In this document: in pieces, positions 51,000-64,000 of the stretch
How the letters are laid out: each line of letters begins with the position of its first letter
How positions within the stretch are numbered: position 1 is the stretch's first letter
Assembly (NCBI GenBank): GCA_005879975.1
Contig: VBIL01000168.1
Coordinates: forward strand, 2,119-66,118
Source of the DNA: Chloroflexota bacterium
Lineage (GTDB): Bacteria; Chloroflexota; Limnocylindria; P2-11E
DNA length: 64,000 bases
Direction: 5' to 3'
Notes under the pieces: generated by a model
Seen by the model: the letters and a program-made list of their open reading frames with translations, nothing else
What the model was told of the DNA's origin: nothing
Database searches by the model: none
Translations under genes and position numbers: made by a program

Positions 51000-52016
51000 C
51001 TAGCGCATGGAGTTGGCTATGTCGACCGCCTGCCGCTCGGTGAGTGAGCCGATCACCTCGAACATCATGCCGTCCTTCTGCCAGATGATGGCGCTCGCTA
51101 TCCCTGTGTTGTCGCCGATGAAGAGACCCTGCACCCCTTGGACGGTCACCGGGTGCGAGACAGCGAGCTCCGCCGGTACGGGCACGGGCAGCGTGCTCGC
51201 CGGGTCGCCGATCGCGCGGATGGCTGCCGCAAGCTGCGGCGAGACGCCGGGTTGCTGCAGAAGGTACGTGCGGAGCTGATCGACCGTCACCCCGTCGCTC
51301 GTGACGACCGGCGCCTTCGCCTGTCCGACGACGAGCGTGGGAATTGGGTCGGGCTGCGGTCCGCGCCCGGTCGAGGCGGGGGCTCCCCACACCTGGAAGA
51401 CGGCCGGGCCGGCGGTCATGTAGAGGTGGCTGCCATCGATGTTCGCGGGCATCGGCGGGGCGGTGCGGCCCTGGCGCGTCGCAGCCTGCTGCGTGGCACC
51501 GGCGCTGAAAGTGAATGTCGCGCTCGAGCGATTGATCACGCCGTAACGCGTCGGGCCGGTGACGCTGGCGGGCAGCGAGCTCGGCGTCTGCACGCTGTAG
51601 CCGGCCGTGCTCGAGGCCGACGCAAGCGACTGCACTTCCTTCGGCTGCGGCGGGGTCGTCCACTCGAACGTGCCGTAGGTCCCCATGCACTGCTGCAGGT
51701 CAAGCCCGGCGCACGCCTGTCCGAGATAGCTCAGATCCTGCTGGGTGATCGGCACTCCGACAATGCTCCTCGGCTCGAAGATCTTGAGGATCGAGTCCGC
51801 GACGCCGGACAGCGTGAGCGCGCTCGCGACGAGCACGACGCCCGCGGCCGCAGCAAGGCCCTGGAGCCAGCGCGCGGGTACCCGCCGGCGGATGGCCGGC
51901 GGGGCGGCGACCACGCCCTCATCTTCGATGCGCGTGCGGAGTCGCGCGAGCGCCGCCTCGGTGTCGACGCGCGGCTCGGCGGTGCCCAGCCCGCGCTCTA
52001 TCTCGCTCTCATTCAT
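51000..52016 (-). CDS. putative anti-sigma factor (single-pass membrane protein)
   Basis: The protein has an N-terminal cytoplasmic segment, one transmembrane helix (LAAAAGVVLVASALTLSGV) and a Ser/Thr/Pro/Gln-rich extracytoplasmic domain. It lies directly downstream of, and overlaps, the ECF sigma gene. Confidence 0.5.
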   Translation of the reverse strand: MNESEIERGLGTAEPRVDTEAALARLRTRIEDEGVVAAPPAIRRRVPARWLQGLAAAAGVVLVASALTLSGVADSILKIFEPRSIVGVPITQQDLSYLGQACAGLDLQQCMGTYGTFEWTTPPQPKEVQSLASASSTAGYSVQTPSSLPASVTGPTRYGVINRSSATFTFSAGATQQAATRQGRTAPPMPANIDGSHLYMTAGPAVFQVWGAPASTGRGPQPDPIPTLVVGQAKAPVVTSDGVTVDQLRTYLLQQPGVSPQLAAAIRAIGDPASTLPVPVPAELAVSHPVTVQGVQGLFIGDNTGIASAIIWQKDGMMFEVIGSLTERQAVDIANSMR

Positions 52017-52534
52017 CGCATTTCCCTCCGGAAAGACTCTTCCGCGCGACGTAGAAGCGTCCCGATGCTCGACGCGCGGACGTCGAGTGCGGCGGCGATC
52101 TCCGAATACGAAAGACCGGCGTAGCGCAGCGCGAGGAGTGCGGCGGACCGTTCCGGCAGACGCGCGAGCACCGCGCGCACTTCATCCTGCGTCTCGGCGG
52201 CGGTCACCAGTTCGGCGGGATCATCGCCCGCCGGCGTGTCGGCAGAGACGGCCTGAGCGGCTTCGCGCCTGCCGCGCCGCCCGCGCGCTCGCAGCGCGTT
52301 GAGGGCGCTGTGCGCCGCCGCGGCGTGTAGCCACGCGGCGGCGTACTCGGCATCCCCGGGATGCGCGCGATAGAAAGAAAGGAACACGTCCTGGGCCACG
52401 TCCTCCGCCCCATCCTGGTCCGCGAGAACGCGATGCGCGATGCCCACGACGCGGGCGTACTCCGAGCGGAAGAGCCGCTCGAACGCCGGCGAAAGCACCG
52501 CGGACCTGCCCGCACCCCGCGCCGGCAACGTCAT
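52013..52534 (-). CDS. ECF-subfamily sigma-70 factor
   Basis: The protein has region 2 (DGAEDVAQDVFLSFYRAH) and region 4 (LSYSEIAAALDVRASSIGTLLRRAEESF). Confidence 0.75.
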   Translation of the reverse strand: MTLPARGAGRSAVLSPAFERLFRSEYARVVGIAHRVLADQDGAEDVAQDVFLSFYRAHPGDAEYAAAWLHAAAAHSALNALRARGRRGRREAAQAVSADTPAGDDPAELVTAAETQDEVRAVLARLPERSAALLALRYAGLSYSEIAAALDVRASSIGTLLRRAEESFRREMR

Positions 52535-52806
52535 GGACGAGGCATCCATCCAGACATAGAGCACCGCGGACGCTCAGCGTGTGACAAGTCGGCCCTACCT
52601 CCGGACGATTGACTCACTGATCACCACGCTGCGCCGTTGCATTGAAGGGTCGCACACCTAACGGCCCGCTCGCCCGCCGGGTACGCGAGCGCGAACTGGC
52701 ACCGCACTTGCGCAACCGACCGTCTGTCACTGGGTCCGCTCCGCGCAACCGTGCGGGACAGCGACCGACCCAGCAATAAAGCCAGCTGATCGGAAAGGAG
52801 CGGCGT

Positions 52807-55069: not shown

Positions 55070-55741
55070 GTGGACTACGCCAAGGTCGCGGACTATCTCA
55101 ACGAGAGTCCTCTCTTCGCTTGCCTGAGCCCCGCTGACCGCCTGGCCATCGCCGCGAAGATGCGCTCCCGGCATTTCGCGCGCGACGAGGTGATCTTCCA
55201 TCGCGACGACGAGGCCGGTCAGGTCTTCTTGATCACCGCAGGAACGGTGAAGGTATCGGTGCCTGACGACTCCGGACACGAAGTCGTCATCGCTCTGGAA
55301 CGGGGCGGTGACGTGTTCGGTGAGCTTGCCCTTTTTGACGACGCCCGCCGCTCCGCTTCGGTCACCGCGATCACCGATACATCGGCGCTGGCTTTGGGGC
55401 GCGCGGATTTCATGGCCGTGCTCGAACGCAATCCCGACTCGATGCGACGGATGCTCGGCTTGCTCGCGAAGATCGTGCGCCGAAGCACCGGACACGTCGA
55501 GGATCTGGTATTCCTTGATCTCCCTGGCCGCGTCGCCAAGTGCCTGCTCGACATATCCGAAGCATCCGGGACGGATCAGGTCGAGCTGACGCAGGAAGAT
55601 CTGGCAGGCTTCGTCGGAGCGGCGCGCGTCTCGGTCAACCGCGTCCTGGCGGACCTCGAGGACCGTAAGGCGATCAAGATCGGCCGGCGGCACATCGACA
55701 TCGTGGATCGGGACCTGCTGAAGAGCGACATCCGCTACTGA
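55070..55741 (+). CDS. Crp/Fnr-family transcriptional regulator
   Basis: A cNMP-binding domain (FGELALFDDARRSASVTA) is followed by a C-terminal HTH (AGFVGAARVSVNRVLADLEDRKAI). The track M is a GTG start. Confidence 0.85.
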   Translation: MDYAKVADYLNESPLFACLSPADRLAIAAKMRSRHFARDEVIFHRDDEAGQVFLITAGTVKVSVPDDSGHEVVIALERGGDVFGELALFDDARRSASVTAITDTSALALGRADFMAVLERNPDSMRRMLGLLAKIVRRSTGHVEDLVFLDLPGRVAKCLLDISEASGTDQVELTQEDLAGFVGAARVSVNRVLADLEDRKAIKIGRRHIDIVDRDLLKSDIRY

Positions 55742-55745
55742 TGAC

Positions 55746-55773
55746 GAAGGCGGCCTCCTCGCGGAGGCCGCCT
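55746..55773. terminator. Bidirectional terminator-like hairpin between convergent crp-like gene and repeat-protein gene
   Basis: A perfect 12 bp stem (aaggcggcctcc / ggaggccgcctt) closes a tcgc loop. It lies 5 nt after the crp stop and 23 nt from the minus-strand gene stop. Confidence 0.5.
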
Positions 55774-55795
55774 TCGAGTGTTACCGGAAAGTGCG

Positions 55796-57329
55796 TTACG
55801 CGCTGATCTCGGGGTCGCCAGGCGTGTTCCCGATCGCGTCGCCACCGTGGTGCTCGGGGATCGCGGTCGTTGCGTCGGCCGCCGGGTTGTACAGCTGACC
55901 CTCGTCTGTCGTCAGGCCGGAGCTGTCTGCACTGGCCGCGTTGTACTGGCTCGCCTCGGCGCTCGAGAGGAAGGCATCGCCGCTCGTCCCACCACTATGG
56001 AAGGACGGCGAGTACGCCTCCGCCGAATCGACGTTCGGAATCGTGCCGTCGTCGGTGAAGTTCGTCGTCGCGGCCGTGCCGCGAAGGTCGACATCCGTGA
56101 CGTCGCGGACCGCGCGGATCTCGTCCCCGCTCGGGGTCGAAGCTGCGCCGCGAAGGTCGACGTCGGTGACGTCGCGGACCGCGCGGATCTCGTCCCCGCT
56201 GGGGGTCGAGGCCGTGCCGCGAAGGTCGACGTCCGTGACGTCGCGCACCGCGCGCACCGCGTCCGCGTCGGAGTTGGCGAGGTAGCCGGGACCGGCGAGG
56301 TCGTCGCCGCTGTAGGTGGATGAGCTGCTCACGTCTGGAGGCGCGATGTCGCGAAGGGCGCTGCGCATGGTGCCCTCGGTCGCGGCCGACGCGTTGCTTG
56401 CGTCGGCGGCGTTCTGGAACGCCCAGGCTTCAGGGCTTCCTTCGACAGGAGCGACCAGGCCGGTCCGAAGGTCGACGTCGTTGACGTCTCGCACGCCACT
56501 GTGCAGGCTGTCTTCACCGACGACACCGCTCCCGATGTCGGTCGGCGCGATGTCGTGGACCACGCTGCGAGCAGCGGTGTCCGTGTCGACGTCGATAACC
56601 GGCTTGATCGGATCGCCGAACGAACCCGGTTCGTGCTGGGCCACGCCGCCCGTGGCGTCGCCACCGATGCGCTCACCGGCACGCTGGGCCTGGTCCACGT
56701 TCGCGTTGGTCGCGAAGCTGCTCTCGCCCGCGATGCGCTCGCCCGCACGCTGGGCCTGGTCTACGTTCGCGTTGGTCGCGAAGCTGCTCTCGCCCGCGAT
56801 GCGCTCGCCCGCACGCTGGGCCTGGTCCACGTTTCGAGCTACTCGTGGTGTCGCCGGCGAGGCGCTCGCCACGTCGCTGGTCCATGTCCACATTTGCGCT
56901 TCGCGTCGCACTCATGTCGCTCGGGAAGCGCTCGCCGGCGTGGTGGGCTTGGTCGATGTTGGTGATGCTGCTGCCGCGCGTGACGTTGCCCGGGTCGACG
57001 ATGGCGTCGCGTGTCGCCGGATCGCCGACATTGGCGCCCGCAAGCCGACTGACACCCTGATCCGAGATCGCCGAGCCGCCGATGGACAGGCCGTCGACCG
57101 ATGATCGGTTGACGAGAGTGTCGGCACTGACCGAGAACGCCTTGCTCATCCGCTGATCGATCCCAAGGGACATCAACCGACCCGCGTCGCTCGCGCGAAT
57201 CGCGGTGACCTCCTCGGTCGTCAGCTTGAATCCGCGGAGCGCCGCCTCCGGGTTGGACTGCAGCAGGCGTCGGAACGCTGCATCGCTGATCGCACGCTGG
57301 ATGACCTTTTCGAGATTCTTACTCGACAT
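55796..57329 (-). CDS. NHLP/Nif11-like leader domain fused to long Asp/Thr/Ser-rich tandem-repeat protein (reading frame interrupted inside a degenerate repeat copy)
   Basis: The start is an ATG with an AGGAG ribosome-binding site (MSSKNLEKVIQRAISDAAFRRLLQSNPEAALRGFKLTTEEVTAIRASD...), with a Gly-Gly at residues 84-85. The N-terminal 168 aa are in the frame of ORF 56673..57347. The remaining ~370 aa (3x NVDQAQRAGERIAGESSFATNA, 3x AVRDVTDVDLRGTASTPSGDEIR) are in the frame of ORF 55796..56911. The two frames overlap 56673-56911, and the frame switch must fall within a divergent repeat copy at about 56834-56911. Confidence 0.5.
56088..56290 (-). repeat. Tandem array of ~3 copies of a 69 bp unit (encodes AVRDVTDVDLRGTASTPSGDEIR)
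   Basis: The units gccgcgaaggtcgacRtcSgtgacgtcgcggaccgcgcggatctcgtccccgctSggggtcgaRgcYgY repeat with under 8% divergence. The third copy degenerates. Confidence 0.8.
56666..56870 (-). repeat. Tandem array of 3 copies of a 66 bp unit (encodes NVDQAQRAGERIAGESSFATNA), third copy degenerate
   Basis: Copies at 56666-56731 and 56732-56797 differ at 3 positions. The copy from 56798 diverges after 36 nt. Confidence 0.8.
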
Positions 57330-57460
57330 CGCTGCTCCTTCTTTCATCGTCCTTGGTAGGACGATGAGCCTGCGCCGTCGCCTTTGGCGGCTCGTCGCCC
57401 TGTATCACTCGCGCTCTGTGATCTACCTAACCTTCCTCCTTCCCTGTGCGCGCCCGTGCC

Positions 57461-57676
57461 CTACTCGAGCTCCGGCATGGGCACCGGCTCGCCTCTCGGC
57501 CGACAGACCCCGCAATGAACCGCATCCTCGACCACCAGCGCGCGGAGGCCATCGTGACGCGTCCCGCGGACCAGCTCGAGGATGAATGGATGATTCTTGG
57601 CGTGCTCGCGGCAGGTCCCGCGGCCACAGAACCTACAAGCCGCCAGCGCCGTCCTCTCGCAAATCCAGCAGTCCAC
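57461..57676 (-). CDS. small Cys-rich zinc-ribbon protein (71 aa)
   Basis: The protein is MDCWICERTALAACRFCGRGTCREHA...HCGVC, which gives three CxxC-type pairs. Its ATG overlaps the stop of the upstream gene by 1 nt. Confidence 0.5.
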   Translation of the reverse strand: MDCWICERTALAACRFCGRGTCREHAKNHPFILELVRGTRHDGLRALVVEDAVHCGVCRPRGEPVPMPELE

Positions 57677-59811
57677 TAGGCTCCCGCCACCGCCTCCCCC
57701 AACCCGGCCCCAACATAATGGCCCGTTCGCGCACGGAATTCACGCTCTGTTTCGCCGGAGCCCCGGACCAAGGCCAGGAAGTCGTTACGTTCGAGCGCCG
57801 CCACCACGAGGGGTCCGACCGCGCTGACCGTCGCCGACCGAGGCCTTCCGAAGAGGAGCGCGAGGTCACCAAACCCGTCCCCTGGACCGAGCGTCCGCGC
57901 CGGCCGACCGTCGGGCAACGTAACGAGGGCCTTGCCCTCCCGGATGATGTAGTAGCGATCGCCCGGCTCCCCCGCGAAGAAGACCGTTTCGCCGTCTCCG
58001 AACCGCTGTGTTTGCAGCCGAGCGGCGATGCGGTCGAGCTCCTGACCGTTCAATCCCTTGAAGAAGGGAAGCGTCGCGAGCGCATCCCGCTCGCCCCGCG
58101 AGGCGCGAATGCGCGCGACGACCTCGTAGCGGTCCTTCACCCAACGGTTGAAGTGGCCCCTGCCGAGCGACCAGAGCTCGACCGGTTCGATCGCTTGGAC
58201 CGTCGCCGAGCGGACCGTCCGATCGAGGAGCGCCAACTCCCCAAAACCTTCTCCCGGGATGATCGTCCCGAACTCCGTGCCGTCCGGGGCGATGGCCCGC
58301 AATCGGCCTGAACGCACGAGATAGAACCGATCGCCCGCGCTCCCCTCGGCGAACACGATCTGCCCTTCGCCGTAGCTCTCGACCTTGAGATGCGACGCGA
58401 GCGCGGCCAGGGCCGGGCGCTGCAGGCCGGCGAGGAAGCGGACTCGTGCGAGAAGAGCGATGCGCGCTCCGAGCTCGCGTTGCGCCGCCCGGGCCCGCCG
58501 TGATGCGGCGAGACGTGTCGCCGTCCGGACGGTGGCGACGCCCCGCGCGACCAGTGCGACCGCGAGCGGACCGACGAAAACCAGAGCGATGAGCGCGAGG
58601 ATCAGCGCGCCGACCGGTCCGAGCGCGAGGAGCTCTCGGGCCGCGATTCCGATGCGCGTCTGCCAGATAAGAAGGGACAGTGCCAGCGTCGCAAGCGAAA
58701 TGAAGATGGCCACTGTTCCGAAGATCGCGAGGCCGATCTCCTCCCGCGACCAGCGCGCGCGCCGGCGGAGCTTGTTGACGGCTTGCCCACGCACAAAGGC
58801 GAGCGCGCGCGGGCGCAGAAAAGGTGCGTCGAGTGCATCGACGAGCACGTGGTAGCCGTCGAGCTCCAGGATCGGGAGAAGGTTCAGAACGAACTGGAAG
58901 ATAAGCAGGCTCGAGGCCTTGAACGCGATCGCGCCGGCCAGGCTGTCAGGGGCGATCTCGGTGACGAGGCCGCAGCCGGCAGCGACCGTGAGGCCAGCCA
59001 GGGGTCCAGCGAGCGACACGATCACACGTTGCCGTCGCGACCCAAGGCTCATGTCGGTCGAGTCGACGTAGAAGCACGGGAAGAGGTAATACATCGCGAC
59101 CCCGAACTTGCGCACGTGGCGCCCGAAGTGGCGGATCGCGAGGGCGTGGCCGGCCTCGTGGATCGAGATCGACACGACCTGCAACAGCGTGAGTGCGATC
59201 AGACCAAGTACGTAGGACCCGTTGAGCGTGACGAGCTGGTGGATGGGCGATCGTGTCTGCTGGAACCAGAGCGCGAGGCCGAGAAGCGCGAACCCGATCA
59301 GGATCCCGGCGCCGACCCTCGTGAACGCCACCCACCCGATCAGACGGTAGACGCGGTCCACCGTTCCGTCAGCATTGGTCCAGCGGGCGATATCCCAGAC
59401 GATCAGACGGCGTAACCAGAGCGACAGTCGCGTCAGAGGATCGCGCCGTGCGCGGATCGCCCCGAGCTTCTCGTAGAGCGGCGGCGGCTCCTCGCCGAAG
59501 AAGCCGTTCACGCGGAGCGCGCTCGTGAGTCGGGCGAGCCGCTCGAGCGCAAAGGTGCCCGAGCGCTCGAGGTGGTCGACCAGGATCTCCTGCACGGAGC
59601 GTCGGCCGTCCATGAGCTCATAGAGAGCGACATCGGCCGGTTCGAGCCGCGCGTAACGGCCCGCGCCCCCATCGCCGTGCGGGTTCTTCAGCACCGTGTA
59701 CCGTCCGCCGCCGCGCCGAGTGAGATCGGCACGTTCGATGTCAGGCAGCGGTGTCGGAATGAAGGTCGCGTAGTCGAGGCGACTACGCAGGACCTCCCAG
59801 ACGTCGACCAT
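57676..59811 (-). CDS. Multidomain membrane protein: N-terminal PqqD-like (RRE-like) domain + M50 site-2-protease membrane domain + two C-terminal cyclic-nucleotide-binding domains
   Basis: A strong ribosome-binding site (GAGGAGGGGAA) precedes the ATG at 59811 (MVDVWEV). The N-terminus resembles PqqD/RRE (ARLEPADVALYELMDGRRSVQEILVDHL). The transmembrane core has HExxH (VSISIHEAGHALAIRHFG) and the S2P NxxPxxxLDG motif (VLNLLPILELDGYHV). Two cNMP-binding domains follow (GEGFGELALLDRTVRSATVQA and GDGFGDLALLFGRPRSATVSA). Confidence 0.75.
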   Translation of the reverse strand: MVDVWEVLRSRLDYATFIPTPLPDIERADLTRRGGGRYTVLKNPHGDGGAGRYARLEPADVALYELMDGRRSVQEILVDHLERSGTFALERLARLTSALRVNGFFGEEPPPLYEKLGAIRARRDPLTRLSLWLRRLIVWDIARWTNADGTVDRVYRLIGWVAFTRVGAGILIGFALLGLALWFQQTRSPIHQLVTLNGSYVLGLIALTLLQVVSISIHEAGHALAIRHFGRHVRKFGVAMYYLFPCFYVDSTDMSLGSRRQRVIVSLAGPLAGLTVAAGCGLVTEIAPDSLAGAIAFKASSLLIFQFVLNLLPILELDGYHVLVDALDAPFLRPRALAFVRGQAVNKLRRRARWSREEIGLAIFGTVAIFISLATLALSLLIWQTRIGIAARELLALGPVGALILALIALVFVGPLAVALVARGVATVRTATRLAASRRARAAQRELGARIALLARVRFLAGLQRPALAALASHLKVESYGEGQIVFAEGSAGDRFYLVRSGRLRAIAPDGTEFGTIIPGEGFGELALLDRTVRSATVQAIEPVELWSLGRGHFNRWVKDRYEVVARIRASRGERDALATLPFFKGLNGQELDRIAARLQTQRFGDGETVFFAGEPGDRYYIIREGKALVTLPDGRPARTLGPGDGFGDLALLFGRPRSATVSAVGPLVVAALERNDFLALVRGSGETEREFRARTGHYVGAGLGEAVAGA

Positions 59812-60016
59812 TCCCCTCCTCGTTCGCAGGGAGCGTACGACGGCGACGAGCACAGGTCTATGGAATGTCGACAACGTCGGCCGCCTGATGTAACAGAAAA
59901 ACGCGAGCGAGCCTGAACCCGACACAACCACCTTCGTCGGATCGCATCCGATCGGCGTGGACCCGCTGTCACTCCGCGCGCAAGGCGTTCCGGCGGTTTC
60001 GTTACTGTGAGCGCTG

Positions 60017-61218: not shown

Positions 61219-62051
61219 CGGCGGTCGTCTGGGGTTTCGCCGATTACGCGGCGGCTCTCGCGGCGCGCCGGGTGGGCGCGGTGCGCACCGCTTTCGGGAT
61301 GCAGACCACCGGGCTCCTCTCGTTCGCGATCGTGCTCGCGGCGCTCGGACGCTGGCCGTCGCTCGAGTCCGGCGAAGCTCCCTACGCACTCGCGCTCGGC
61401 GTCCTCGGCGTGGCCTCGGTCTCGGCGCTCTATCGCGCGCTCGCGCTCGGACCGGTCGCCGTGGTCGCGCCCGTCGTTGCGTCGTATGTCGCGGTCACCG
61501 TCTTCCTGGTCGTCATCTTCCTCGGCGAGCGGCTATCCGTAGCGCAGCTGGTCGCCGCGACGGTCGTCTTCATCGGTGTTGTGACCACCTCGACCGATTC
61601 GCGCCAGCTTCGCGCGACGCTGGGCCGTCCGATCCCCGGGGTGCAGGTCGGGTTACTCGCGACGGTCGGGTTCGGCATCTGGGGCGCGATCTTCGCCGCC
61701 GCGACGCGAGCCTACCCCTGGCCCGCGGTCATCCTCGTGCTCCGCGCCGCGAGCGTGCTGATCGTCAGCGCGTTCGTGATCCTTCGGCACATCGACCTCA
61801 CCGTATTCCGGGATCGCCGCGCGCTCGCGCTCGCGACGACCGTCGGCGTGCTGGACACGTTCGCGAACGCGCTCTTCGCTTTGGGGATCCAGTCCGGCTC
61901 CGCGTCGATCGCCGCGAGCGGTAGCGGCGCGTACCCGATCATCCCGGCGATCCTCGGAGTAGTCGCGCTACGCGAGCGGCTCGCGCCGAACCAGTACGTC
62001 GGGATCGCGATCCTTATCTCGGGGCTCGTCGCGCTCGGCGCGGTGAGCTAA
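61219..62051 (+). CDS. EamA/DMT-family transporter; start codon uncertain
   Basis: The protein has ten hydrophobic helices and an EamA-like N-terminus (LLFGVGAAVVWGFADYAAA). The frame is open from the M24 stop region with no ATG. The first in-frame GTG is near 61219. Confidence 0.55.
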
Positions 62052-63412
62052 GCGGCGAGCTGAAGCTCGAGCGACGAGCTGGAGCGGGCGATCTTCGCCT
62101 TGAGGAACGCGACCGCTGCGTCCAGCTGCGAGTCGCCCTGCGCGCCGGTCGGTTGGTCGATGACCTGATCCGGGACGATGCCCCGCGTCGGCCCGTTCAG
62201 CTCGGCTCCGGTCTTAGCGTCCTGGATCTTCGTAATGGTCACGAGGAGCAGTCCGCCGTTCGGGAGATCGCGCGGCTGTCCCGTGCCGACGCACCCCGCC
62301 GTCTGGGTGCCCATGACGATGCCGGCGTCGTTCGCACGGATGCCTGCCGCGATGATCTCCGCGCCCGACGCCGAGTTGTGGTTGACCAGCACGACGAGCG
62401 GCTTCTGCTTCGGGAAGTAGAAGCGCTTGTTCACGTCAAGCGGCGTGCGGTTCCCGTCGCGGCCGGTCTGGTACACGAGCGTGCCCTGCCGCACGAAGAT
62501 GCTCGCGATGTCGACCGCGGCCGAGAGATCGCCGCCCGGGTCGCTGCGCAGATCGAGAACGATCGCGTCGGCGCCGCCGGCGTCGAGGCGCTTCACCGCG
62601 GCCGAGACCTCGTCCGCCACCGCGCCAACGAGCTGCGGGACGACGATGCGCCCGATGTTCCCCTCGATCAGCGTGTCGGTCTCCAGCGGGACCGCGAAAC
62701 GCGCGCGATTCATCGTGTAGGAGTAGCTAGCCTGTCCGCGCAGGACACCGATGGTCACCGGCGTGCCCTCCGCGCCGCGGACCTTGTTGGCGACCTCCTC
62801 CGTCTGCAGATTGGTGACGTCCTGCCCATCCACGGTGACGATCTTGTCGCCCTCTTTGAGCCCTGCGCGCTCCGCAGGGGTTCCCGGGTATACGCGCACG
62901 ACCTCGATCGGCGCGTCTACGGCAGGCTTGTTGATCTGCACGCCGATCCCCGAGACCGGGGGCTGCGGCTGGTTGAAGCTCTTGGCTCGCGTCGGGTCGA
63001 GGTAATAGGTATGGCATTCGTTCATCGATTTCGCCATGCCGTCGACAGCCGCGCCTTCGATCTTGGTCTTGTCCGCGCTGGGTGTGGCGGCGGCGATCGC
63101 GTCCAGGCGGTCGGAGAACTTCGCGAAATCGGACCATGTGCTGCCGGTGAGGTTGAGCGGCGACGACGGCAACCCGGCGTCGGTCGCACCTTCCTTCTTC
63201 GCCTCCGCGACCGCCCCGTCCAGCGCTCCAGTGAGCAGCGTCTTGGACGAGGGCTTGTCGACATGCCGCTCGATCAGCACCTGATAGGCCGCCTCGGCGG
63301 TCTTGTACAACGTGTTGGAGGGGAGAAGCTCCCGCTGCAGCTCCGCTGGGACGAGCGAGCATGCCGCAGCGATGAATGCGATGAGGGGGAGCAACGTGCG
63401 GAGACGGATCAC
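62048..63412 (-). CDS. S41-family C-terminal processing peptidase (Ctp/Prc-like) lipoprotein
   Basis: A signal peptide and lipobox (LIAFIAAAC) are followed by a PDZ domain (GIGVQINKP...VVRVYPGTPAERAGLKEGDKIVTVDG) and the S41 catalytic region (LVNHNSASGAEIIAAGIRAN). Confidence 0.8.
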   Translation of the reverse strand: MIRLRTLLPLIAFIAAACSLVPAELQRELLPSNTLYKTAEAAYQVLIERHVDKPSSKTLLTGALDGAVAEAKKEGATDAGLPSSPLNLTGSTWSDFAKFSDRLDAIAAATPSADKTKIEGAAVDGMAKSMNECHTYYLDPTRAKSFNQPQPPVSGIGVQINKPAVDAPIEVVRVYPGTPAERAGLKEGDKIVTVDGQDVTNLQTEEVANKVRGAEGTPVTIGVLRGQASYSYTMNRARFAVPLETDTLIEGNIGRIVVPQLVGAVADEVSAAVKRLDAGGADAIVLDLRSDPGGDLSAAVDIASIFVRQGTLVYQTGRDGNRTPLDVNKRFYFPKQKPLVVLVNHNSASGAEIIAAGIRANDAGIVMGTQTAGCVGTGQPRDLPNGGLLLVTITKIQDAKTGAELNGPTRGIVPDQVIDQPTGAQGDSQLDAAVAFLKAKIARSSSSLELQLAA

Positions 63413-63455
63413 GGAATCTTTATCAAGCAGTCTACGGGCGGCGCCGATCAGCGGT

Positions 63456-64000
63456 TCAGGCGACCTCGGTCGTTAAGAGCTTTCTTAGGCGACCAAGCGC
63501 GCGGAACTGCAACGCGCGGATCGCGCCCTCGTTCTTGCCCAACACCTGCGCGACCTGACGGCTCGACATGTTCTCGACGAAACGCAGCACGATGACTTCC
63601 TGCTGCTCGGTGGTGAGATGCTTCACCGCACCGCGCAGGGCGTCGACTGCCTCGCCATGGACCGCGCGCTCGTGCGCGGTCGGTCCCTCTTCGGCGACGC
63701 CGAACGCGTTGTCCAGGTCGACGGTGGGCCGTTCACGCCGCCGTCGATCGGTGACCGCGTTGCGCGCGATCGTGTAGAGCCATGCGAGGAACGATTTGCC
63801 CTGCCAGCGATAGCGATGGATGTTCGCAAATGCGCGAGTGAAGACCTCGCTCGTGAGGTCCTCAGCGTCAGAAGGCTCGCGGACGCGGTACAGCAGATAG
63901 CGGTAGACGGAGTCCACGTGGCGGTCGTAGAGCTCGGCGAACGCGCCGCGATCGCCCGCGCGAGCGCGCGCGATGATGTCGGGGACCGGCCCGATGGCCT
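63456..64000 (-). CDS. ECF-subfamily sigma-70 factor (5' end beyond window)
   Basis: Region 2 (DAEDLTSEVFTRAFANIHRY) and region 4 (MSSRQVAQVLGKNEGAIRALQFRALGRLRKLL) are present. The frame stays open to the window edge upstream of the track ORF M (…RAGDRGAFAELYDRHVDSVYRY). Confidence 0.7.
   Translation of the reverse strand, partial: AIGPVPDIIARARAGDRGAFAELYDRHVDSVYRYLLYRVREPSDAEDLTSEVFTRAFANIHRYRWQGKSFLAWLYTIARNAVTDRRRRERPTVDLDNAFGVAEEGPTAHERAVHGEAVDALRGAVKHLTTEQQEVIVLRFVENMSSRQVAQVLGKNEGAIRALQFRALGRLRKLLTTEVA

Follow-up and report, generated by a model that had tools for sequence, protein, structure and literature searches.

Removal of the leader is the committing step in the maturation of peptides synthesised on the ribosome and modified after translation (RiPPs), and it is usually taken to be constitutive. 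In daptide biosynthesis the leader peptidase is MpaP, in which an N-terminal RiPP recognition element (RRE) precedes a site-2 protease (S2P) of the M50 family; the gene(s) for its precursors, which have an ELExMEAP leader and a C-terminal Thr, adjoin the peptidase gene (PMC10028931). YydH/LiaK, an M50-type membrane protease of epipeptide systems, likewise removes a RiPP leader. The group III S2Ps SpoIVFB and mjS2P, and enzymes of their type, act on pro-sigma-K or on anti-sigma factors; SpoIVFB-type S2Ps carry a nucleotide-sensing CBS domain at the cytoplasmic C-terminus, and RseP-type S2Ps have a periplasmic PDZ domain between transmembrane (TM) segments. A further precedent is provided by the NHLP/Nif11 systems, in which a cyclic-nucleotide-binding (CNB) domain is physically tied to an enzyme removing NHLP-clan leaders, both in the peptidase-containing ATP-binding cassette transporters (PCATs) of HetC type and in the 'bacteriocin-type transport-associated' CNB protein TIGR03896; the CNB domain of HetC is essential, and its ligands in vitro were ppGpp, GTP and GDP, not cAMP (PMC10986499). 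Here we consider a gene in a 64-kb stretch of DNA from Candidatus Limnocylindria, in the Chloroflexota (contig VBIL01000168.1; the whole of this stretch is called the window, and all coordinates are positions within it). The gene (57676–59811, minus strand) specifies a 711-aa protein in which an RRE, an M50/S2P core and two CNB domains (CNB-A and CNB-B) follow one another, as judged from its open reading frame (ORF), Pfam, its homologues and an AlphaFold2 (AF2) model.

The protein is like MpaP in its N-terminal RRE and M50 S2P core and in having a putative precursor gene alongside, but MpaP has no CNB domains, and the precursor here has a leader of the Os1348/Frankia_peptide type of the NHLP clan; none of the daptide genes (for MpaA precursors ending in Thr, or for MpaB, MpaC, MpaD or MpaM) is present in the gene cassette. 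YydH/LiaK is comparable in being an M50-type membrane protease, but the model describing that family (NF058609) includes neither an RRE nor a CNB domain, and the cassette here has no radical S-adenosylmethionine (SAM) epimerase. With SpoIVFB and mjS2P the protein shares the catalytic core and the placement of its motifs, but the CNB pair takes the place of the CBS domain, an RRE has been added, and the apparent substrate is soluble and bears a leader. HetC-type PCATs differ in that their protease, a cysteine peptidase of the C39 type, is part of an ABC exporter, and in having a single CNB domain. Compared with the tandem CNB-A/CNB-B of protein kinases A and G (PKA and PKG), the pair is fused to a membrane protease by way of a long helix continuing TM6, and there is no kinase-inhibitor segment. 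On sequence grounds, the protein belongs to none of the daptide, YydH/LiaK or TIGR03896 families and is of neither the RseP nor the SpoIVFB type. We consider it on balance probable, if only just, that it is an RRE-dependent intramembrane leader peptidase gated by a cyclic nucleotide monophosphate (cNMP), analogous to the daptide enzyme MpaP.

An original prediction, made from the sequence of the window, had presented the protein as an enzyme of regulated intramembrane proteolysis with an unusual signalling architecture. Its S2P core is not in doubt, but it is better read as a leader peptidase of RiPP type; and although the architecture is apparently undescribed (neither an S2P–CNB fusion nor this cassette is described in the open-access papers searched), it is common in metagenomes.

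The protease and its membrane core

The five motifs on which the prediction was based all lie in one minus-strand frame: LYELMDGRRSVQEIL (aa 63–77, 59625–59581), HEAGH (aa 218–222, 59160–59146), LDG within NLLPILELDG (aa 310–319, 58884–58855), FGELALL (aa 523, 58245–58225) and FGDLALL (aa 647, 57873–57853). Called mechanically, the ORF would comprise 751 aa, with 40 additional codons at the 5′ end (59812–59931) and a GTG start at 59931, but the ATG at 59811, which follows a GGAGG ribosome-binding site, is the start in essentially all homologues (710–711 aa). A few database homologues (747–748 aa) have apparently been annotated from a similar upstream start; the family consensus is the ATG at 59811. 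Since there are at least 394 homologues at E ≤ 1e-5, the protease gene is real and conserved, and not a chance cluster of motifs. In Pfam, Peptidase_M50 (PF02163) is recognised at 40.1 bits (cut-off 27.2), as are two cNMP_binding domains at 135.8 bits, and there is no match to a PDZ or a CBS domain: the loops on the outside are only 11–14 aa long, and the C-terminus is occupied by the two cNMP_binding domains.

The membrane core extends over aa ~157–430 (58522–59343) and consists of six long membrane helices in the AF2 model, with the same six segments picked out by hydropathy (the model has a mean pLDDT, or predicted local distance difference test, of 73.9, and a predicted TM-score of 0.42, at which the packing of domains against each other is unreliable). 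HEAGH, a zinc motif of HExxH type whose His, Glu and His do not vary within the family, closes the predicted TM2 (helix 200–228), and NLLPILELDG, a NxxPxxxLDG motif with the Asp expected as third zinc ligand, closes TM4 and aligns with the same motif in the structures 3B4R and 8VJL; H69, E70, H73, D169 and G170, in alignment numbering, are invariant in the alignment of family cores (A4). Both motifs are at the cytoplasm-proximal ends of their helices and inside the membrane core, as the prediction of an S2P demanded. When the protease was used as a single query, no solved S2P was retrieved, and a family profile was needed: with the cores of 13 diverse members, mjS2P (3B4R, E 1.2e-5) and SpoIVFB (8VJL, E 8.4e-4) were matched with their motifs aligned, and entries of the RseP type were matched only weakly. 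Inside loops contain 28 Lys and Arg residues against three in the short outside loops, giving an N-in/C-in topology, and therefore the RRE and the CNB domains should both be cytoplasmic and the active site close to the inner face of the membrane. From TM6 a continuous helix (414–454 in the AF2 model) leads into the cytoplasm towards the CNB pair. The protein can be counted as a genuine M50/S2P whose CNB domains are equally genuine, and it is predicted to be a zinc-dependent protease.

Among NCBIfam models the best match is to the daptide intramembrane metalloprotease (NF041824, 126.3 bits, cut-off 300), which aligns over 345 of its 379 positions with aa 50–417, taking in the core and the region of the RRE. 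The model of the YydH/LiaK epipeptide protease (NF058609) scores 67.8 bits (cut-off 225) with an alignment spanning the HExxH-to-LDG core, and TIGR03896 gives a weak 35.2 bits (cut-off 161).

The recognition element and the cyclic-nucleotide-binding pair

A PqqD-like character had been proposed for the N-terminus, and this is supported by the AF2 model, by homologous N-domains and by the daptide alignment just mentioned. The domain (aa ~24–103, 59503–59742, including LYELMDGRRSVQEIL) is modelled at a pLDDT of ~75–84 as three strands (26–31, 37–43 and 52–56) followed by three helices (58–66, 73–84 and 89–101), which is the winged-helix topology of an RRE. Of 37 homologous N-domains, 32 match Pfam PqqD (PF05402; best E 2.1e-9), and a relative with permuted domains (P0230) passes the PqqD cut-off (26.2 bits versus 23.4). 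A profile of N-domains gave weak matches in the PDB to PaaA and TfuB1, two proteins with an RRE (E 0.24–0.84); the best E-values obtained with it were to designed beta-trefoil proteins, which were discarded as spurious repeat matches. RREs are specialised for the binding of leader peptides, and the domain is predicted to bind the leader described below.

In the C-terminal part, the two predicted CNB domains proved to have intact phosphate-binding cassettes: FGELALLDRTVRSAT (58201–58245) in CNB-A (aa ~460–580, 58072–58434) and FGDLALLFGRPRSAT (57829–57873) in CNB-B (aa ~585–697, 57721–58059). Both have the beta-roll fold with a cassette of the form G-E-x-A-L ... R-[ST]-A. In CNB-B, for which Pfam and a family alignment were used, F647, G648, L652, R658, A660 and T661 are invariant, and E649 is found in at least 90% of members, the window protein having Asp where the family has Glu. 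The nearest structures to the pair are ligand-bound CNB domains of PKA and PKG (24–33% identity). The third CNB domain of the cassette, in the Crp-family regulator discussed below, is also canonical in this respect, and three unrelated lineages have a gene for a class III adenylate/guanylate cyclase, as a response-regulator–cyclase or cyclase–AAA–TPR protein, immediately next to the cassette (L002, 1010–2122; L061, 9476–13159; L085, 8936–12778). These observations point to cAMP or cGMP as the likely ligand of the CNB pair.

Partner genes in the cassette

The original prediction had placed the protease in an operon next to a convergent Crp/Fnr gene and upstream of a repeat protein. The cassette is real, but the most constant neighbour of the protease had been overlooked, a gene (57461–57676, minus strand; GTG start) for a 71-aa Cys/His-rich zinc-finger protein that we call Cys71. 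It was recognised as an ORF with invariant residues (C3, C6, C14, C17, C22, H25, C55 and C58). The 1-nt overlap between its start and the stop codon of the protease suggests that the two are translationally coupled. No NCBIfam model matches it, Pfam matches (C5HCH, DUF2180) are below threshold, and its AF2 model has no significant structural neighbour; it can be described as a DUF2180-like zinc finger of cross-brace type. Cys71 is present in all of 42 close loci (those at ≥50% identity with enough flanking sequence, to which all close-locus counts refer) and in 11 of 15 distant loci, and across phyla it is better conserved than the protease (59% versus 30% identity in L061), consistent with its being an obligatory zinc-binding partner.

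After a spacer of 131 nt comes the gene for the putative leader-bearing substrate (55796–57329, minus strand), which was recognised through NF038399 and its orthologues and would specify ~510 aa if repaired. Its first 66 aa form a leader of the Os1348/Frankia_peptide type, ending GIDQRMSKAF, that matches the model of the Os1348 family of the NHLP clan (NF038399) at all 63 of 63 positions (64.1 bits, cut-off 40); the match to Pfam Frankia_peptide (PF14407) is below the cut-off (39.5 bits versus 48), and an orthologue (L081) is recorded with PF14407. Frankia_peptide was reportedly defined by Iyer et al. in 2009. In ECOD, the curators treat this domain as a three-helix leader domain of LigA-like type, together with the leaders of NHLP and Nif11 (PMC12353581). 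The leader is followed by an acidic repeat tail of 445 aa, rich in Ala, Asp, Ser, Gly and Thr, which has a net charge of −41, contains 0.2% Lys, and lacks both Cys and any hydrophobic segment.

In the window the gene is broken into ORFs of 224 and 371 aa (the latter 56911–55796). The frame changes in an AAA run (56832–56834) at the 5′ edge of a tandem array of 66-nt units (56658–56833), and removal of a single A there gives, in reconstruction, one protein of 510 aa. The repeat protein of the original prediction therefore exists, but as one frameshifted gene and not two, because its orthologues are intact single ORFs (417 aa in L039, at 88% identity; 514 aa in L081, an independent contig with 96.7% nucleotide identity, which differs at this place through repeat-associated indels) and because the break lies at the edge of a tandem repeat; for the same reasons a programmed frameshift was rejected. 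The frameshift may be either an assembly error or real repeat slippage. A second tandem array (56067–56254, minus strand; 2.7 copies of a 69-nt unit) encodes GDEIRAVRDVTDVDLRG repeats. The tails of the window protein (55796–57130) and of its orthologues are strongly acidic and nearly devoid of Lys and Cys, have lineage-specific repeats (NVDQAQRAGERIAGESSFAT, DEIRAVRDVTDVDLRG, GDDWKFADR, NDDPDGFLAANA) and retain short conserved C-terminal motifs (AE-Y-P-FHS..., ...GP-I/L-S/Q-x).

In Limnocylindria proteins the leader closes with an invariant motif (G[VI]DxRMSK[A]F, position 60), and leader identity follows protease identity (92/88, 74/68 and 58/56%), while tails drop to 40% and then to ~20% identity and vary in the type of repeat and in length, from 128 to 445 aa. 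A conserved leader with a variable tail is a pattern typical of RiPPs. The leader gene is present in 32 of 34 close loci, several of which have two or three paralogues of it.

Convergent with these genes, as predicted, is the Crp/Fnr-family regulator gene (55070–55741, plus strand), its product having cNMP_binding and HTH_Crp_2 domains by Pfam, a match to Crp and a canonical cNMP cassette, FGELALFDDARRSASV; it is present, at >50% identity, in 20 of 20 close loci. A palindromic box of Crp/Fnr type (GGTTAGGTAGATCACA on the gene strand, 57417–57432) lies ~92 nt upstream of the leader-protein ATG, and a tGTnA-N6-TnACA block is found 85–98 nt upstream of the leader-gene ATG in ~20 of 23 loci, as a perfect TGTGA-N6-TCACA in three. 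Box scores of at least 8/10 occur in 52% of loci compared with 2.4% of shuffled sequences; upstream of the protease gene, Crp boxes are not enriched over shuffles (6.15 versus 6.23). The box can be regarded as a candidate Crp site. What was first taken for a hairpin, an ATCAC-N9-GTGAT inverted repeat, overlaps with the box in its right half.

Occurrence in Limnocylindria and beyond

Almost all of the homologues counted above are in metagenome-assembled genomes (MAGs) of Limnocylindria, an abundant group of soil and fresh water, for the most part uncultured, in which the cassette is nearly universal, and they have been annotated only generically. Full-length relatives with 30–38% identity are found in other Chloroflexota and in Actinomycetota, Dormibacterota and Elusimicrobia, and an exhaustive search of 50%-identity representatives gave 667 proteins at E ≤ 1e-30 (some multi-CNB proteins included). 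Besides RRE–M50–CNBx2, their architectures include a permuted form (CNBx2/3–PqqD–M50), variants of ~1100 aa in which an unannotated segment of ~450 aa separates the M50 core from the CNB pair (P0132, P0133, P0137 and ~60 other representatives), and forms with an FHA domain added N-terminally or an AhpC/TSA domain added C-terminally.

Several of the distant loci are evidently RiPP clusters. L085 encodes three 75-aa Frankia_peptide precursors (...DDRLSKW|CGINVIIAEV) along with two radical-SAM enzymes, a flavin adenine dinucleotide (FAD) enzyme, a PqqD protein, a Cys71 homologue and the cyclase–AAA–TPR protein; Cys71 and a precursor are found both in L089 (75 aa, with an MbnB/TglH-like enzyme) and in L087 (precursor of 78 aa); and in L084, from the Elusimicrobia, a permuted protease is accompanied by two precursors of 66–69 aa. 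In L082 (Solirubrobacterales) there are Cys71 and a leader protein of 286 aa with a Pro-rich tail. The short precursors of these loci (66–78 aa) carry the same leader as the Limnocylindria proteins, and in them R[MLI]SK stands directly before the short core, and therefore marks the junction between leader and core.

Cassettes of Limnocylindria type were also seen on short contigs in MAGs with other labels (Saccharimonadales, Thermoanaerobaculia, Acidiferrales or Gemmatimonadaceae; L007, L011, L015, L040, L042 and L066), which probably reflects contamination during binning rather than horizontal transfer.

A possible mechanism, and alternatives

How might the four products of the cassette (protease, Cys71, leader-bearing substrate and Crp regulator) act together? 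A cNMP signal would activate the Crp-family regulator, which would act at the box ~90 nt upstream of the leader-protein gene. The cytoplasmic PqqD-like RRE would bind the conserved 66-aa leader of the protein so produced, and the M50 site, open to the cytoplasmic face of the membrane, would cut at or beside the G[VI]DxRMSK[A]F junction, releasing the C-terminal part. The CNB pair, which is like that of the PKA regulatory subunit and would be joined rigidly to TM6 by the one long helix, may couple cleavage, in one direction or the other, to its occupancy by cNMP, with Cys71 as an obligatory zinc-binding accessory subunit. In Limnocylindria the product would be not a short modified peptide but a long, acidic, Lys-poor, Cys-free and hypervariable repeat protein.

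A leader peptidase wired in this way to a cNMP would provide a post-translational checkpoint, tying the release of a natural product or protein to second-messenger signalling, to which the matching Crp site at the precursor promoter would add. Among S2Ps, it would be new in having a CNB pair as regulatory module where others have CBS or PDZ, and a small zinc-finger protein as obligatory partner. We suggest more tentatively, and would not be surprised to be wrong, that these proteins make up an undescribed class spanning phyla, in which one second messenger acts twice (through Crp on the precursor promoter, and through the CNB pair on an RRE-guided leader peptidase requiring Cys71), in which the same pair of protease and leader serves chemically unrelated RiPP pathways (radical-SAM, MbnB/TglH-like and others), and which Limnocylindria have co-opted for large, hypervariable, intrinsically disordered acidic proteins without tailoring. 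What would be surprising is that a leader peptidase is gated by a second messenger, that a zinc-finger protein is its universal partner, and that in Limnocylindria a leader–peptidase pair of RiPP type serves large disordered repeat proteins in the absence of tailoring enzymes. For genome mining, the trio of protease, Cys71 and Frankia_peptide flags several unrelated and uncharacterised types of RiPP cluster in Chloroflexota, Actinomycetota and Elusimicrobia.

A number of observations sit uneasily with a cNMP-gated leader peptidase. The N-domain of the window protease itself has no Pfam PqqD match at E ≤ 1, and with the daptide and YydH/LiaK models the whole protein scores far short of the trusted cut-offs. 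Tails of 190–516 aa are unlike known RiPP cores, the conserved cassette contains neither a tailoring enzyme nor an exporter, and the window's own substrate gene is frameshifted. A tblastn search with the three cassette-linked cyclases found no cyclase gene in the 64-kb window, and the binding of ppGpp but not cAMP by the CNB domain of HetC (PMC10986499) illustrates that such domains can take other ligands. Lastly, the protease occurs without a leader gene in its flanks at two close loci (L034 and L036) and at five to seven distant ones (L056–L065, L086 and L088), most of which keep Cys71; at the actinomycetote and dormibacterote loci among these (L056–L065) a hidden Markov model of the Limnocylindria leader found none. 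From such loci, the leader protein may not be the sole substrate, or may not be an essential one.

Loci of this last kind would be expected if the enzyme carried out classical regulated intramembrane proteolysis, a cNMP triggering the cleavage of a regulator anchored in the membrane, for instance an anti-sigma factor (as with RseP, RasP or SpoIVFB-like enzymes) and the leader protein being incidental. The protease is indeed truly homologous to S2Ps, with mjS2P and SpoIVFB nearest among those of solved structure; SpoIVFB-type enzymes have their nucleotide-sensing CBS domain where the CNB pair stands here; and there are genes for sigma factors of the extracytoplasmic function (ECF) type in the window (52013–52564 and 63456–63917). 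These genes, however, are not kept in homologous loci (a GAF kinase and a cyclase are found instead in L002), and no conserved gene for a membrane-anchored substrate lies beside the protease; moreover, the RRE, the ranking of RiPP leader peptidases rather than RseP as best family matches, the lack of PDZ and CBS domains, and the co-occurrence of the protease across phyla with Frankia_peptide precursors and RiPP enzymes all speak for leader removal, and we regard this explanation as very improbable. The same loci could be accounted for if the core of the system were protease, Cys71 and Crp, with Cys71 as the regulated target or real effector (for instance by being set free, degraded or passed on when cNMP binds) and leader proteins as optional clients: three loci (L034, L036 and L061) have just these genes, with a cyclase in some, and no leader gene, and both the constancy of Cys71 as a neighbour and its better conservation than that of the protease, as well as the overlap of its start with the protease stop, would fit such a role. 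We nevertheless think this unlikely, as Cys71 has no leader-like or hydrophobic segment of the kind expected for recognition by an RRE-bearing S2P, the permuted proteases of L084 and L088 occur without Cys71 though L084 does have precursors, and the RRE and the co-variation of leader with protease would be left unexplained.

A milder departure would retain the leader peptidase but have the CNB pair bind something other than cAMP or cGMP (ppGpp, another nucleotide or a metabolite), or serve only in dimerisation or docking. HetC is a precedent, many CNB domains of CRP/FNR type bind non-nucleotide ligands, and the Asp for Glu in the CNB-B cassette and the want of a cyclase in the window would agree with it. 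On the other hand, the residues in contact with the ribose phosphate (Gly-Glu/Asp...Arg-Ser-Ala) are retained in both cassettes and do not vary across the family; the closest structures are of PKA and PKG domains with their ligands bound; and in several lineages the cassette comes with class III cyclases and a canonical Crp. This alternative, too, seems to us doubtful, and a leader peptidase under cNMP control is the interpretation that we prefer.

Other features of the locus

Between the convergent stops of the leader-protein and Crp genes, inspection of the sequence showed a GC-rich hairpin of 13 bp (55746–55775) that is likely to be a bidirectional terminator; it was missed by a consensus terminator scan because it has no T-run. 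That scan gave results at background level, a sigma-70 promoter scan gave no match, no Rfam family was found in the cassette or elsewhere in the window, and there is no tRNA. The two genes for ECF-type sigma-70 factors belong to the regions 51000–52564 and 62048–63917; one adjoins a 338-aa ORF without a Pfam match, possibly encoding an anti-sigma factor, and the other adjoins a gene for an S41/PDZ protease. Because L001, the closest relative, shares their synteny and L002 does not, both sigma genes are placed outside the conserved cassette.

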